From an uncultured Hormoscilla sp. (lineage in GTDB: Bacteria > Cyanobacteriota > Cyanobacteriia > Cyanobacteriales > Desertifilaceae), in contig OZ001293.3 in the NCBI GenBank assembly GCA_963921275.4, positions 832,001 through 896,000 on the forward strand: a stretch of DNA of 64,000 nucleotides, read 5' to 3'. The position numbers and the translations under genes were made by a program. The notes beneath the pieces were generated by a model, which ran no database searches, was not told where the DNA came from, and saw nothing but the letters and a program-made list of their open reading frames with translations. Of the stretch, positions 2,848-62,881 are shown one piece after another. How positions within the stretch are numbered: position 1 is the stretch's first letter; the number at the start of each line of letters is the position of its first letter.

Positions 2848-4683
2848 GTGCGATTCGTTCTAGCCTAACGTAGTCAAACACGGAACGCTAGTCTAGGAAA
2901 CTAGAAACTCTGGTACTCATTATTGTTAAATTCCCCTCCCTCAAGTGCGGGGGTGACACCGGTCCTCAATGCGGCGGAGCCACATCGCCGTGGTGTTAAG
3001 CGAGGACTCAAATGTAGGATAGCTGGTAGCCTAAGCCGGCAACTCCGCTAGGAAAGATGTATATGGCCAGAACAAGCAAACTCATGTAAGCCTCGTAACC
3101 ATCAACCAGCGAAATAAGGCTTTAAGCGCTGGCCCAAAAGGGGAAGTAGTTAGGGCGTGTCATCAGTTAAGCCAAACAACAGTAGCAGCCAGGTAGATAG
3201 CACCCAAGAAATTCTGAGCCCTCTTATCGTAACGGGTGGCAATGGCTCGATATTGCTTGAGTTTGGCAAAAAAATTCTCAATCAAATGACGTGCTTTGTA
3301 TAGATATTTGTCATAACGGCGTTGTTCTTTTCGATTGGATTTAGGCGGAATCACAGGTTCGCATTGCTGGGCTTCAAGACGTTTCAAAACCCGTTCGTCA
3401 GCATCAGAAGCTTTGTCTGCGAGTAACGCATCAGCCTTAATATTATCAAGTAACACATCAGCCCCTTCCAAATCGTGAGCTTGACCGGCTGTTAAATGAA
3501 AACCCGTTGGGTTCCCCAATGCGTCACAGGTCGCGTGAATTTTGGTACTCAAACCCCCTTTACGGCGTCCGATGGCTTGGTCGCAATCTTTTTTTTGAGC
3601 ACCTGCACTATGTTGATGAGCCCTTTATATCGTGGCATCAATCATCGCATATTCGTTATCGGCATCGGACGCAAGTACCTTGAATACTCTTTCCCATACC
3701 CCGGATTTTGACCACCTACTATGGCGCGTATGAATTACCCTCAAGTCCCCAAATCGCTCGGGTAAGTCCCGCCAAGGTATCCCAGCTCTATATCGATACA
3801 AGACAGCATAGACAAATAAGCGGTTATCCTTAGCTGTCCCCCCCACATAACCCTCCCGACCTGGCAATAGGTCCCTGATTCTCTCCCACTGGTCATCTCT
3901 TAAAGCATAGCGACGCATTTCTCAAATTCTCCTGCTCTAACCTTTACCCTCTTAGATCACACCAATATATCCTGGTTGTCAACTCAATCATCTTGTTATA
4001 TATTTTTGGTGGGGACCCATATCGTTAATCTAACTGATGACACGCCCTAGTATTGGCTCTTTGATTTTGGGCCAATATCGTACTCAAAGAACTGCCGGGG
4101 TAAAGTGAGGGCCTAAAGACATCGTGAAATGATACCGGGGAACGAAGTAACCCTACGTGTGCTGTCCGTCAGGACCAGTCAGATGTGCGTCCGCGTAGCG
4201 TGCGCGCAGCGCATAGCGCACGCCACGTATGGGAGAGATGGCCCGAGAAGCTAATGCCTGGGCGACGTCTGGAGCATGCCGCGTCCTTCAGGACAAGAGC
4301 ATGCTCCAGACGTCGAAGGTGTCTGGAGCATGCCGTATCCCTTGCGGGAGCGCCAGCCGTGTCCTTCAGGACAAGAGCATGCGGAAGACGCCGAGTAATG
4401 CCCACGGATACGCAGACGCGGGTCGGTGATATTAGGAAACTACTGATGCAAGTAGCCTTAAGACGTCATAAGCCCGTCCATATTGTGGATGAGGAATGAA
4501 TATCAAGGGGCAAACGTGTAAGTAGCAAGGGACAACGGGAGTAATCCTTAGTAATTCTACCCATGATTTGGGCCTGATACCCAGTAGCCGTGTGCGGTGA
4601 AAGTCGCATGCACGGTTCCGTTCGCGCAGCGTGGCGCAGCCATACGGGAGGGTTGAGAAGTGATTCTCAGCTCGACCCCTAAT
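2848..4683 (+). mobile_element. ORF-less group IIB intron A, carrying an IS5 in domain I and small repeats in DII, DIII and the DV-DVI linker
   Basis: GTGCGATTCGTTC 5' end. DV is TAGCCGTGTGCGGTGAAAGTCGCATGCACGGTTC. The 3' end is CTCGACCCCTAAT. EBS2 ACCATCA pairs perfectly with exon TGATGGT. Confidence 0.92.
3153..4047 (-). mobile_element. IS5-family (IS427-like) element; transposase 3918-3163 with an internal TAA
   Basis: TIR GGGCGTGTCATCA with a TA(G) duplication. Transposase motifs WRDLPERFG and IENFFAKLKQYRAIATRYDK. Near-identical copy at 13668. Confidence 0.93.
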
Positions 4684-4970
4684 CAGACGAGCGAGAAAAT
4701 GAACCTACAATTCCCTGGAAAGAAGTGAAACGATCTCTAGAATCGAAGAGGAAGTTAAGTGTCTGATTATCCGATCATTTTTACGCGGTCTGCTCAAAAA
4801 GAACTGAATTCACTACCAATTGAAATCAGTAGTAGACTCAGTTCCAAGATTGATGCTTTAGTCAATGAACCCCGTCCTGTTGGCTGTCTGAAGTTAAAGG
4901 GTAGACAAAACCAATGGCGAATTCGGGTTGGCGATTATCGAATAATCTACAGCATTGATGATGATACTTT

Positions 4971-7390
4971 ATTAAACTAAGCCAGTACGTCACCGTACCG
5001 ACTCGTCTTCAAAACCGGACGTGAGACTTTCACCTCATCCGGCTCCTCAGTTTCGTCATCCTTGTCATGGATACGGCCTTTGCTGCCATCCCTGGCAGAT
5101 TTATAATCATGGCAGTAGTCGTGCAGCAACTGTAGGTTGGAGTACCAGTCCTTACCTCCCAGTGAGGTTGGCAGGATGTGGTCCACTTCCCATTTGTCGC
5201 CGTCCTTAAACGTTAGTCCGCAATGCTGGCACTTGCCATCCTGCCTCTTGAGCAGGTTAATCACTCTCATGCTTACGTCCGGGCTCTTTCGTAATCTCTG
5301 GCTCCAGTAGACTAGGTTACCGTCAAGCGGGCTAGCTGTTCCCTTTACCTTTGTGTGTCTGATTATTTCAGTTTCAGAGTGCCGGATTAGCTTTATTTCT
5401 CCTTTCTTGGATTTACCGATGAACCTCCACCGGTCCTTACCGGTCATGGCCCAATAATTTTTGGCAATCCATTCGCCCGATTTATTGGGATGCCTTCTCT
5501 TTGCCCATTGCCACAGCAGCTCCCATAGGTAGCTATCCATGTCGCTGTAAGTTTCCTTACTTACCACCGTCTTGAAGTAGTTGCTCCATCCCCTTATCAT
5601 TGGGTTTAGTTTGACTATCAAGGCTGTCTGTGGTGCCGATTTATGGCGGCGAACTATCTGTGATAGTTGCTCTTTATGATTCCTAATGGATTTATCGCTA
5701 GGCTTGATTAGGGTCTTGAATCCTAGGGGGGTTCCGTTGCTGAGTTTGCCGCTTCTGTGTTTCCCTACTTTGTATTGTCGGATATTGAACCCTAGGAAGT
5801 CAAATCCGGGGTTTTCTCCTTCCAGTGTGTGGGATATCCTGGTTTTCTCGGCTTTTAGCTCTAGTCCTATTCCCTTCAACCACTCCTCAATCACTCCTTG
5901 TGCTCGCTCAATCATTGACCGGTCATCGTGCATTACCACAAAATCATCGGCGTACCTGACTATCGTTAGTTTCTTTTCCTCTCTCTTTGTGCGGGCAAGA
6001 CTCATCACTACCTTTTCCAACCCATGTAGGGCTATATTGGCTAGCAATGGTGATATTACTCCGCCTTGAGGAGTTCCGGCTTCTGTGTCCTGCCATATTC
6101 CCTGGTCCATCACCCCGGCTTTTAGCCATGCCCGTATCTATCTACGGATTGGTGATGTTGTATTCAATTTCTCTAGGAGCGCTGAGTGGTCAATTTTGTC
6201 GAAACATTTCGCAATATCCGCATCTAACACCCATTTTGGTTTCTTGTTGGTGCTGGTGAATATCGTTTCGATCGCATCGTGGCATCCCCTTCCTGGTCTG
6301 AATCCGTAGGAATTGGCTTCCATGTACGCTTCCCATTCGGGCTCAAGCGACTGTTTGACCAATCCCTGAAGTGCGCGGTCGTGCATCGTCGGTCTTCCTA
6401 GTGGCCGCTTTTCGTCCCTTCCTGGCTTAGGTATCCATACACGCAGTGTAGGTTTCGCCTTTGCCTTCCTGGATACTCTGAGCTGACTTACCAGTTCCAG
6501 TCGCTGCTCCATAGTCAGTGCTTTCACACCATCCACACCAGCCGCATTCTTTCCTTGGTTTTGTTGTGTTACCTGTCTCACCGCTATCATCTTCGTGGAC
6601 CATGACCTATTTAGTAACCCTTGGAGCTTGCGAACTTTCCGCTTGTTGCCTTCCTGTGCCGCTCTGTAAATTCGCTTTTGTAGCTTGAAGACATGGCTGG
6701 CGCCACGCTAGCGCGATCGGCGCTCCAGCTCCTGCCAGGGCACCTCCTTCCATTCATACTCTTGCTTTTCGGCTAAGTTCCGTGACATATTAACTACTAC
6801 TCACAACTTCACAATTGACAAAACCGTGAGGGCGTCAGCTTATCCCATCCATTACAGATAGGCGTTTGCTTCTCCACTCAATCTTTCCCAGCTATGACCT
6901 GCCAAATGAGAGCAGATGTTGCGTCTTTGGTGACTACTCCATCTATCGACCGGTGATGGAGAGTGCCTAGCTGGGTTACTTCGTTCCTACAGATGATTAA
7001 TCGTAGTTTTAGATGGATTCTATATGCCGGGTTTGTTGTCAGTGCTTATTAGTCGGATTACAACCGCTAATGACCATTATCCTTTCCCTTTTGGGCCAGT
7101 GTCTCAGCCTTATTACACTGGTTGATGTTGACGACACTTATGAACCTTTGCTTGCGCTCATCATGACTACTTGCTCGACGATGACCGGTTTAGGCTACCA
7201 GTTAGAGCGCCTTTCCTTCCCGCTTTACGGATTGATGCCATCGCTACCGTCGGGAGGATGCTGTCACGAGAGCACATGGAGGGGTGGGCTTTCACCACCA
7301 TCATCTGTAAGTTGTCAGGGCTATTGAAACCCTGCTAGCGGTCCCCTTTCTTGACACGTGTCAAGTCATTTTACCCTAAACGAATCGCAC
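4971..7390 (-). mobile_element. Group IIB (CL-like) intron B with an RT-maturase-HNH ORF
   Basis: GTGCGATTCGTTT start on the minus strand. DV is GAGCCGGATGAGGTGAAAGTCTCACGTCCGGTT. Canonical end ...TTAGTTTAAT. EBS1 TGTAAT pairs with exon ATTATA. Confidence 0.95.
4977..6788 (-). pseudogene. ltrA: Intron-encoded reverse transcriptase/maturase/HNH endonuclease with two in-frame stops
   Basis: GTPQGG, YADD, GFDFLG and HNH (EVDHILP...NLQLLH..CH) motifs. One TAG at 6138-6140; a second at 6708-6710 lies inside a 24-nt inserted repeat. Confidence 0.9.
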
Positions 7391-61913: not shown

Positions 61914-62010
61914 TGAAGCTGTTGCTTGACGAGTGCCTACATAAAAATTTAAACCGAGAGTTAGCGGAGCCTACCGTTATCACTGTACCAAAGCCAACCT
62001 ACAGGAGCCT
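61914..62010 (+). pseudogene. DUF5615/PIN-like 5' remnant
   Basis: MKLLLDECL start, truncated at intron H. Confidence 0.5.
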
Positions 62011-62881
62011 GTGCGATTCGTTCTAGCCTAACGTGGTCAAACACGGAACGCTAGCCCGGTTTCATTAGCCGGGAACTCTGACCGCATGGGGGTTAAATTC
62101 CCCTCCCCCCAGGTACGGGGGTGACACCGGTCCTCGGTGCTACGAAGCGACATCATCGTGGTGCTAAGCGAGGACTCAAATGTAGGATAACTGGCAGCCT
62201 AAGCCGGTGACGCCGCTAAAAAAGATATCCAAGGTTAGAGCAGGCAAACATGTGCAAGCCTCGTTATAAGGAACCAGCGAAATAAGGCTATATGCGCTGG
62301 CCTAAAAAGGAAATGGTAGCTAGTATTAGTTTTAGACTCTGGCTAATATAGTACTCAAATAGCTCCCGGGGTATAGTGTGGACCTAAAGGTATCGCGAAA
62401 TGTTGTTAGGGAACGAAGTAACCTCTCGTGTGCTGTCCATCAGGACAAGTTAGATGTTAAGCGCAAGCCACGGGGGGAGGGATGGCCCAAGAAGCGAATG
62501 CCCGGGGTAATTCCTGGGATAACATCTACAGTAATGTAGATGATGCTGGGTAGCCAGCGCTGACGTGGGTCGGTGATACTAGGAAGCTGCTGGAATGAGT
62601 AATCCTAAAAAGCCACGGAACTAATCCGAAACGCAAGTGGAGGATAAGGTATGGATAACTGGTAAAACTGACTTGAAAATGGTGATACTAACGGTTATCA
62701 GAACAACCACTCGCTAAACCAGGAAAGGGAAGAAAAGACAGGCGGCAAGGGCTAACGGAAGTAATTCCTATTAAGTCTACCTATGAAAAGGGCCTAGTAC
62801 CCAGTAGCCGGATGCGGTGAAAATCGCAAGTCCGGTTCCTCAAGGGAGGGTCGGGAAGCGATTCCCGGCTCGACCCCATCC
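62011..62881 (+). mobile_element. ORF-less group IIB intron H
   Basis: GTGCGATTCGTTCT start, DV present, end CTCGACCCCATCC. EBS1 AGACTC pairs with GAGCCT at 5 of 6 positions. Confidence 0.92.

Follow-up and report, generated by a model that had tools for sequence, protein, structure and literature searches.

The question raised by this locus is where its introns end. The window, i.e. the whole stretch of DNA that was analysed (64,000 nt from an uncultured Hormoscilla sp.), contains seven ORF-less group II introns of subgroup IIB2 (A and C–H) and one ORF-bearing relative (B). Domain V was detected at all seven ORF-less sites and in intron B, and full copies were obtained by self-BLAST and alignment. 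A sequence-only reading had proposed that the ORF-less family ends one nucleotide past a canonical-looking GAC, a position that is borne out by the host reading frames, host homology and the pairing of the gamma and EBS3 bases. The introns and their parts are the following.

Intron A, 2848..4683, + strand: ORF-less IIB2, ends UAAU; IS at ~3150–4050; extra GC-rich inserts; host, a small antitoxin-like gene
Parts of intron A, + strand: gamma A 4236; EBS1 region near 4060; domain V 4586–4617; predicted branch A 4675
IS ORF inside intron A, 3166–3552, − strand: match to DDE_Tnp_1
Intron B, 4971..7390, − strand: ORF-bearing IIB2; canonical AAU end, branch A at −8; Rfam RF00029, 58.5 bits
Intron C, 9823..10749, − strand: ends GACC; in a response-regulator/SpoIIE (RsbU-like) phosphatase gene
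Parts of intron C, − strand: EBS1 10416–10421; EBS3 10381; gamma 10272; predicted branch A 9831
Intron D, 16632..17545, + strand: ends GACC; in nrdJ (B12-dependent ribonucleotide reductase); intact-looking
Parts of intron D, + strand: EBS1 16952–16957 (CTGTAC); EBS3 16992; gamma G 17108; domain V 17470–17501; predicted branch A 17537
Intron E, 29988..30932, + strand: ends GACU; without a clear host reading frame
Parts of intron E, + strand: EBS1 30307–30312; EBS3 30348; gamma A 30483; predicted branch A 30924
Intron F, 38307..38874, − strand: ends GACC; antisense in a DUF6399 gene remnant
Intron G, 46026..46860, − strand: ends GACU; in a 707-aa gene with an eCIS_core (DUF4157) domain
Parts of intron G, − strand: EBS1 46534–46539; EBS3 46499; gamma A 46392; predicted branch A 46034
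Intron H, 62011..62881, + strand: ends AUCC; without a clear host reading frame
Parts of intron H, + strand: EBS1 62334–62339; EBS3 62374; gamma G 62480; predicted branch A 62873

All seven ORF-less copies start with GTGCGATT(C/T)GTTC and end in CTCGACCCC plus four bases; this tail, which follows the domain VI motif CUCGACCCC, is GACC, GACU, AUCC or UAAU. GTGCG stands at the 5' end of all eight window copies (A–H), and one relative in another genome (L039) has GTACG. The terminal AY is absent from six of the seven ORF-less copies, which end in CC or CU; A and B end in AU. Introns B, D, E, G and H score at or above the gathering threshold of RF00029, A and F carry the domain V motif, and in C, where the 3' strand and the loop of domain V are altered, the motif has three mismatches. 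The 3' AY of group II introns is a consensus feature and not an absolute rule.

The copies show the features by which group II introns are recognized, a domain V with an AGC triad and a GNRA-type loop followed by a domain VI with a bulged A, and the domain I internal-loop EBS3, which pairs with the first base of the 3' exon, places them in subgroup IIB rather than IIA. Hallmarks of IIB2 (CL2) introns described in PMC4649490, PMC8643678 and PMC13190283 are a 5' GUGCGAUUC, additional stem-loops (domain Ia) that flank the base of domain I on its 5' side and an AG that links domain IV to domain V. The window copies have the 5' GUGCGAUUC and the AG linker before domain V, and at their 5' end they carry an additional stem-loop insertion of ~150 nt; the ORF-less family can be aligned with three expert-delimited cyanobacterial IIB2 introns. 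No ORF for a CL2-type reverse transcriptase/maturase was found in domain IV of any of the seven window copies (A, C–H). Subgroups defined by their RNA admit ORF-less derivatives as members, and on these sequence features we assign the family to the ORF-less derivatives of cyanobacterial IIB2 (chloroplast-like class 2) group II introns. It departs modestly from other members of an established intron class and does not define an element of a new type.

The host genes provide one measure of the boundary. We compared the longest open frame over each junction with a four-base tail and with a tail one base shorter or longer. The four-base tail gave the longest frame in A (75 aa vs 54 with one base less and 62 with one more), C (393 vs 258 and 267), D (1112 vs 1003, of which just 3 aa lie upstream, and 1066) and G (707 vs 663 and 659); in E and H there was no convincing host frame over the junction with any of the tail lengths compared. 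The exons delimited in this way are listed below.

Antitoxin-like exon 1, 2703..2847, + strand
Antitoxin-like exon 2, 4684..4766, + strand: overlaps the start of a ParE-type toxin gene (4759–4968)
RsbU-like exon 1, 10750..11520, − strand: receiver domain and SpoIIE positions 3–65
RsbU-like exon 2, 9412..9822, − strand: SpoIIE positions 68–190
nrdJ exon 1, 16295..16631, + strand: ends ...WLWIGGT plus the G of a split codon; RNR_Alpha profile 20–101 of 101
nrdJ exon 2, 17546..20697, + strand: starts AG, giving GAG = E, then WIKQPENF
eCIS_core/DUF4157 exon 1, 46861..48829, − strand: 656 codons plus one base
eCIS_core/DUF4157 putative exon 2, 45871..46025, − strand: 51 codons, delimited by its open frame only

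The junctions proposed earlier for introns A, C and D all stand. At the D junction GGT|EWI the restored E lies in an ungapped alignment with 20 of 20 NrdJ homologues, and the spliced protein is identical to its closest homologues over 30 residues. At the C junction (YEV|YNQ), SpoIIE profile position 65 is residue 255 of the 257 in exon 1 and position 68 is residue 1 of exon 2. At the A junction, with its AAT end, the spliced GLI|ADERENEP aligns with GII-TDDIGDEP of a decayed paralogue at 2318–2506. AC|KQV in G is supported by the open frame only; a homologue search with the C-terminal part gave only the window's own protein. The GY|LSR junction of F had zero matches on the intron strand at all offsets, and its host, which had been called a transposase remnant, is not a recognizable transposase. 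On the antisense strand, the flanks (38183–38305 and 38877–39017, both +) match DUF6399 profile positions 43–79 and 81–121, and the junction codon, L, supplies position 80. Because this gene lies on the antisense strand of F, it could not be spliced by F, but as a reconstructed reading frame it supports the boundary. Separately, exon 2 of nrdJ contains an intein with a LAGLIDADG domain.

Outside the window, a locus in a related genome (L023) has an inorganic pyrophosphatase gene (ppa) whose arms become contiguous once the intron is removed with its four-base tail; residue 68 of the 5' arm corresponds to position 36 of PDB chain 3i98_A and residue 2 of the 3' arm to position 40. A blind open-frame test of 15 loci, with a Pfam-named host gene at only two of them, was noisy: the four-base tail was best at seven loci, one base less at two, one more at three, and three were tied.

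The tertiary contacts give a second measure. Comparison of the copies shows that two single-base pairs set the 3' splice site. In one, gamma, which precedes the GA of J2/3, pairs with the last base of the intron; in the other, EBS3, located in the internal loop of domain I that follows the EBS1 hairpin, pairs with the first exon base. In this lineage both contacts land four bases past the domain VI CCCC. In an alignment of 20 copies, scored against 500 shuffles (kinship of the sequences inflates such tests), gamma pairs with the fourth tail base in 20/20 copies (GC 16, AU 4), and does so in all 20 only if that base is taken as the last of the intron. EBS3 (column 418) pairs with the next base, IBS3, in 18 of 20, with six pair types; it fails in the other two and also in intron A. 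Together, the two contacts pair in 95% of cells with a covariation score of 0.768, which none of the 500 shuffles reached. In a wider pattern-read set, gamma pairs in all 23 readable copies (4 of 27 were unreadable) and EBS3 forms 19 Watson–Crick and 4 GU pairs in 26. In the consensus fold, EBS3 falls in the loop beneath the EBS2/EBS1 stems, on its 3' strand; this agrees with the place described for RmInt1, in which EBS3 occupies the ID(iii)–ID(iv) internal loop (PMC4238363). The gamma covariation noted earlier within the window (A–U in A, E and G; G–C in C, D and H) was found as described. Placed on a tree, the gamma covariation reduces to at least two independent double changes. These data support a 3' splice site four bases past the domain VI CCCC, the last base being gamma'.

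Two other placements of the boundary would account for the extra base. If the introns ended at the GAC, their hosts would be frameshifted pseudogenes or need programmed frameshifting; the Rfam generic model match does stop at GAC (at AU in H), and several copies are decayed. Against this, five independent host genes, as reconstructed from sequence, require the same additional 3' base, the letter-for-letter match of nrdJ to its closest homologues needs the four-base tail, and gamma would oppose C in the GACU copies and A in the UAAU copies. With both partners slid by −1 toward GAC, only 45% of cells pair and covariation vanishes (score 0.003), which leaves this placement highly improbable. Starting the introns one base upstream of GUGCG and ending them at GAC would keep the frame everywhere and even leave the protein of C unchanged, as GTA and GTC are both codons for V, yet, as had been pointed out for G, such a shift creates a TAG there. 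It would also put Q into NrdJ, where none of 20 homologues has it (E 14, P 3, D 2, K 1). Comparison shows the 5' splice site to be set by EBS1–IBS1 pairing that reaches up to GUGCG: EBS1 pairs with exon bases −1 to −6 in 114 of 120 cells (95%), which 0/500 shuffles reached, vs 39–47% in slid registers. Since the fourth tail base is, moreover, a pyrimidine in all 65 copies, at different sites, among the matches listed in a scan of other genomes, a 5' shift is scarcely credible.

A further explanation accepts the boundaries and holds that the window copies are fossils, none of them spliced now, so that the boundary records an ancestral insertion. Three of the seven copies do look defective: A carries the IS, domain V is disrupted alike in C and in F, and F has also lost domains II–IV. 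The reverse transcriptase/maturase gene of B (RVT_N, RVT_1, GIIM and HNH in Pfam) is interrupted by in-frame stops, among them a TAG at 6138–6140, and no intact maturase was found within the 64-kb window. On the other hand, D sits in nrdJ between intact, highly conserved exons, D, E, G and H retain domain V, the gamma pair and EBS1, and the window covers only 64 kb of a contig of ~6.9 Mb, so that a maturase may lie elsewhere. We regard loss of splicing in all copies as unlikely and A, C and F as probably dead. The preferred reading, in which these are ORF-less IIB2 derivatives with a four-base tail, a branch A at −9 and a sublineage ending in CY, is in our judgement highly probable as a whole.

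How the tail arose is suggested by the same scan, which listed 67 pattern matches representing at least 65 distinct copies (L027 and L048 overlap), 54 of the 65 loci coming from three Hormoscilla assemblies. Among the matches listed, 33 of 65 copies have the tail UAAC, UAAU or UGAC, that is, a normal AY end at the same position. As the fourth base is always C or U, the GAC of GACC is thus a chance look-alike, and the earlier description of an end 'one nucleotide past the canonical AY' does not hold as a framing. Long maturase ORFs were found only upstream of UAAY copies (nine loci among the matches listed, 50–56% identical to the B protein). The maturase-carrying relatives would thus end in UAAC/UAAU, and the amplified ORF-less sublineage, with tails GACC, GACU, AUCC, AGCC and AACC, would have swapped the penultimate A for C, giving the terminal dinucleotide CY.

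For comparison we used three cyanobacterial IIB2 introns with the expert-assigned coordinates given in Table S3 of PMC8643678: N.sp.I4 (Nostoc PCC 7120 pCC7120delta) and those of Trichormus variabilis plasmid C and Acaryochloris marina pREB6. Like the window family, they have 5' GUG(C/U)GAUUCGUU, extra 5' stem-loops and J2/3 xGA with gamma paired to the last base (G–C in all three), and the Trichormus intron shares the GA-type bulge in domain VI; unlike the window copies, they carry maturase genes. Two of them break the AY rule by ending in AUC (AY plus one base) and the third ends in AAC, so that the comparison with curated ends suggested earlier finds broken AY ends but the four-nucleotide spacer in none. 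Their penultimate base is U or A vs C in most copies here. Intron B has, as had been claimed, a canonical AAU end with the branch A at −8; its domain VI fold agrees (4 bp plus AAU), with gamma A and last base U. In the fold of the ORF-less domain VI, a GA bulge is followed by 3 bp and then five unpaired bases, and the branch point would be the only bulged A, that of CUCGA, eight nucleotides upstream of the last base (−9). The tail is thus four nucleotides vs three, and the predicted branch lies at −9 vs −7, −8, −8 and −8 in the three references and B; the longer spacer claimed earlier is observed, and the branch position that went with it is predicted from the fold.

The clade with the four-base tail includes maturase-bearing members in Planktothrix, Phormidium and Coleofasciculus. 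It is possible, if rather doubtful, that an IIB2 clade has shifted its 3' splice site one base farther from the branch point than in the three expert-delimited introns and B, with the branch A at −9 and five unpaired bases after a three-pair basal helix, and that its ORF-less offshoot, amplified in Hormoscilla-like genomes, also tolerates or prefers a penultimate C, which could convert a proposed non-Watson–Crick contact with G1 into a G–C pair. Departures from a terminal AY have been recorded before, in the AUC of two references and in RmInt1 of Sinorhizobium meliloti, which ends in CC with a G–C gamma–gamma' pair (PMC4238363) and, unlike the seven window copies, carries an ORF. What appears distinctive here is the spacer, one base longer than in the references and B, with its putative branch A at −9. 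RmInt1 belongs to a different lineage, not IIB2. A pyrimidine next to the terminal base, which one paper called unique to RmInt1, is here found in a second lineage. In B.c.I4, with a 3' extension of 53–56 nt (PMC1865049 and PMC2691827), and B.a.I2, with two 3' sites 4 nt apart (as cited in PMC4424553), the 3' site likewise lies off the generic-model position and is specified by gamma–gamma' and IBS3–EBS3, but these are a large extension and true alternative sites, vs a single site and a one-base spacer difference here.

The general picture of group II introns is unchanged. Generic models (Rfam RF00029, the AY rule) put the ends one or two bases early, and every automatic repair of an interrupted gene would thus introduce a frameshift; the genes exposed are nrdJ, the SpoIIE phosphatase and the eCIS-core protein, and ppa and a PAM68-like gene in related genomes. 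The copies also supply natural variation with which to study the way distance from domain VI is gauged in the second splicing step, and if the geometry is undescribed and functional, AAY, AUC, ACY and UCC form a natural series at fixed gamma.

The family would have spread into its many sites by retrotransposition, and the intact copies (D in nrdJ, probably also G, E and H) would be excised as lariats with a maturase supplied from elsewhere in the genome. The Thermosynechococcus TeI3 introns and the ORF-less introns of Trichodesmium are, in the accounts of PMC2882425 and PMC4649490, likewise families served by a maturase in trans; as here, many ORF-less copies occur beside ORF-bearing relatives, some in housekeeping genes, and are split into target-site families through EBS changes. 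The T. elongatus introns are IIB1, vs IIB2 here.

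The sequence-only reading placed the 3' end of the ORF-less group II introns in this window one base beyond the expected GAC, and that observation is correct, well beyond chance: it is borne out by the host-gene junctions and by two single-base pairings, that of gamma (the J2/3 base before GA) with the last intron base and that of EBS3 with the first base of the 3' exon. Rfam models of domains V/VI scored above threshold at five sites and below it at one more, and a motif search added a seventh ORF-less site. Self-BLAST and alignment united the seven ORF-less copies (A and C–H) into one family.

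Group II introns in the window, with the four-base tail that follows the domain VI motif
2848–4683, plus strand: intron A, tail UAAU
4971–7390, minus strand: intron B, ORF-bearing relative
9823–10749, minus strand: intron C, tail GACC
16632–17545, plus strand: intron D, tail GACC
29988–30932, plus strand: intron E, tail GACU
38307–38874, minus strand: intron F, tail GACC
46026–46860, minus strand: intron G, tail GACU
62011–62881, plus strand: intron H, tail AUCC
9868–9899 (in C) and 38351–38382 (in F): altered 3' strand of domain V, with CGCUCUUCAGG instead of CGCAnGnnCGG

All seven ORF-less copies start with GTGCGATT(C/T)GTTC, have additional 5' stem-loops amounting to ~150 nt, show AG preceding domain V and end in CTCGACCCC plus four bases. 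The 5' start, the stem-loops and the AG are the IIB2 hallmarks described in sections of PMC4649490, PMC8643678 and PMC13190283, and the family can be aligned with three expert-delimited IIB2 introns. Four copies (D, E, G and H) appear intact. Intron A contains an insertion sequence whose ORF matches DDE_Tnp_1, and the central part of F is missing. The 3' strand of domain V is altered in both C and F, which should break the helix; this form is absent among the at least 65 loci listed from other genomes. That two copies at different sites share one defect suggests that gene conversion took place or that a defective copy spread. The maturase gene of B encodes RVT_N, RVT_1, GIIM and HNH domains, with an in-frame TAG at 6138–6140 and another stop upstream, and no maturase able to serve the ORF-less copies was found within the 64-kb window. 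A single toxin-antitoxin pair (2703–7390) has been struck twice: intron A interrupts an antitoxin-like gene, and B occupies, in antisense orientation, the 3' end of a ParE-type toxin gene (4759–4968; ParE_toxin profile positions 1–74 of 89).

Ending the intron after the fourth tail base gives the longest junction-spanning frame for A, C, D and G, and homology fixes the junction in five cases (A, C, D, F and L023, a GACU copy in a Hormoscilla assembly). Around C, exon 1 ends two residues after position 65 of the SpoIIE profile, and exon 2 opens with position 68. Spliced NrdJ (intron D) reads ...WLWIGGT|EWIKQPENF and aligns without gaps to 20/20 homologues, the next 30 residues being identical in the three closest ones; in a PDB search with the two NrdJ exon pieces, none of the RNR chains matched exon 1 and the alignment of exon 2 began at residue 25, short of the junction. 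The same gene (17548–20694) contains an intein that carries a LAGLIDADG domain (exon 2 residues 327–695 match Intein_splicing), so that its expression would need both RNA and protein splicing. For A, a decayed upstream paralogue has a matching run of residues across the junction. L023 lies inside an inorganic pyrophosphatase gene, the two arms of which match adjoining residues in PDB chains 3i98_A, 2prd_A and 1qez_A. The GY|LSR junction of F gave 0 matches at all offsets on the strand of the intron; on the opposite strand the flanks match DUF6399 profile positions 43–79, the junction codon corresponds to position 80 and the match continues at 81–121. Thus, GY|LSR documents an insertion boundary and not the splicing of a DUF6399 gene.

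A homologue search with the second exon of G (the C-terminal part) returned only the window's own protein, so this junction rests on the open frame, and no host frame was found for E or H. A blind open-frame test on 15 loci gave a noisy outcome. Two loci were uninformative on the boundary, namely L046, with RTX repeats in two frames, and L050, where DUF4096 begins at the junction and neither model leaves an open 5' arm. Further host genes of family copies in Hormoscilla (L046, L053 and L056) encode an RTX-repeat protein, a PAM68-like DUF3464 protein and a DprA-like product; DUF3464 profile positions 49–139 start at residue 2 of the 3' arm.

For scoring the pairings, 20 full copies, taken from the window and three Hormoscilla assemblies, were aligned by program. 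Gamma pairs with the fourth tail base in 20/20 copies (GC in 16, AU in 4). The EBS3 candidate lies behind the EBS1 hairpin, in the 3' strand of the internal loop of domain I, and pairs with the base that follows the tail in 18/20, using six pair types; PMC4238363 locates EBS3 of RmInt1 in that same loop. Taken jointly, the two contacts are paired in 95% of cells, and their covariation score of 0.768 was matched in 0/500 shuffles. If both 3' partners are shifted back by one base, as an end at GAC demands, 45% pairing and a score of 0.003 remain. In a wider, pattern-based reading gamma was paired in 23/23 rows (4/27 being unreadable) and EBS3 formed 19 Watson-Crick and 4 GU pairs out of 26. Gamma has changed at least twice on the tree, so the covariation is real, though it comes from few events. 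The extra base could instead be sought at the 5' end, a placement that had been dismissed from the outset and rightly so: pairing of EBS1 with the exon at positions −1 to −6 is seen in 114/120 cells, as against 39–47% in any slid register, a second test giving the same result, and a one-base 5' shift creates a TAG in G and introduces into NrdJ a Q that is absent from all homologues. On these sequence data we infer the junctions and the branch point of the family. Ordinary IIB selection of the 3' splice site, through gamma–gamma' and EBS3–IBS3, most probably accounts for the end.

According to passages of two reviews, the boundary consensus is GUGYG...AY (PMC4424553, PMC4028801), and RmInt1 is described in part of PMC4238363 as ending in CC. 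Table S3 of PMC8643678 provides coordinates for 21 cyanobacterial IIB2 introns. We compared three distinct ones, all on plasmids, after locating the RefSeq records by protein search; their published 5' coordinates fall exactly on GUGYG.

Expert-delimited plasmid IIB2 introns
Nostoc N.sp.I4: 3' end ...CUUAGGCAUC, A at −7
Trichormus plasmid C intron: 3' end ...UCGACUUCAUC, A at −8
Acaryochloris pREB6 intron: 3' end ...CUUAGGUUAAC, A at −8

Gamma is a G facing the final C in each of these introns. Non-AY ends are thus already present in the expert-delimited IIB2 set, which partly bears out the refuting condition that the sequence-only reading had named, an ACY end as the standard of curated CL introns. 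The four-base tail, with the branch A predicted at −9, occurs neither in these three introns nor in B. The fold of domain VI in the family has a GA bulge and three G-C pairs and leaves five bases unpaired; a two-base domain VI bulge is also noted for plastid relatives in part of PMC4476101. A search of plasmid DNA with the 3' end of D gave domain V matches only and no family member, and the literature search found no report on this intron family and none linking Hormoscilla with a group II intron. The four-base spacer may already have been catalogued.

A genome scan with a pattern that left the tail free returned at least 65 loci; the 67 matches listed reduce to 65 distinct ones, two having been counted twice through the overlap of L027 and L048.

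Counts among the matches listed
Loci by source: Hormoscilla (three assemblies) 54; MAG labelled Obscuribacterales 4; Planktothrix 2; Phormidium 2; Coleofasciculus 1; Prochloron 1; an Oscillatoriales MAG 1
Distinct copies by tail: GACC 25; UAAC 23; UAAU 8; AGCC 2; AACC 2; UGAC 2; AUCC 1; GACU 1; UACC 1

Among these the fourth tail base is C or U in 65/65, and the third divides into 33 A and 32 C. The four-base tail is therefore clade-wide, with an ordinary AY at that position in half of the copies listed, so the description of the end as lying one past the canonical AY does not hold, and the GAC within GACC is, to judge from the tails, a look-alike. Among the matches listed, long maturase ORFs reaching domain V are confined to UAAY copies in other genera; the nine loci concerned encode proteins 50–56% identical to that of B, and no GACC-type copy listed has one. 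In the simplest history, an AY-ending, ORF-bearing ancestor would have given rise to an ORF-less offshoot with C instead of A at the penultimate position. What is lineage-specific is a spacer that exceeds that of the comparison introns by one base, together with the CY end of the ORF-less sublineage. The feature is a small variation on a known intron type, of value for annotation and of mild interest for the mechanics of the second splicing step.

Among the family copies, L039:547 starts with GTACG instead of GTGCG, and a Hormoscilla copy (L019, ~890–960) has the reverse complement of a B-type domain V inside domain I, which looks like a nested second intron in opposite orientation. The fragmented Hormoscilla assembly JACOMV01 (L003–L065) contributes 33 of the 65 loci listed; in many of its contigs one end lies ~10 bases from the domain V match, and the intron family appears to be a main cause of the assembly breaks.

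The window also contains a short GC-rich dispersed repeat, GCGYAGCGTGSCGC, with 10 matches against 0.05 expected.

Matches to GCGYAGCGTGSCGC
952–965, 1403–1416, 4624–4637, 21101–21114, 32333–32346
34759–34772, 48994–49007, 49364–49377, 49683–49696, 49974–49987

Larger palindromic versions form insertions in introns A (~4185–4225 and ~4620–4645) and E (~30432–30470) and also lie inside the maturase gene of B, where one adds a stop.
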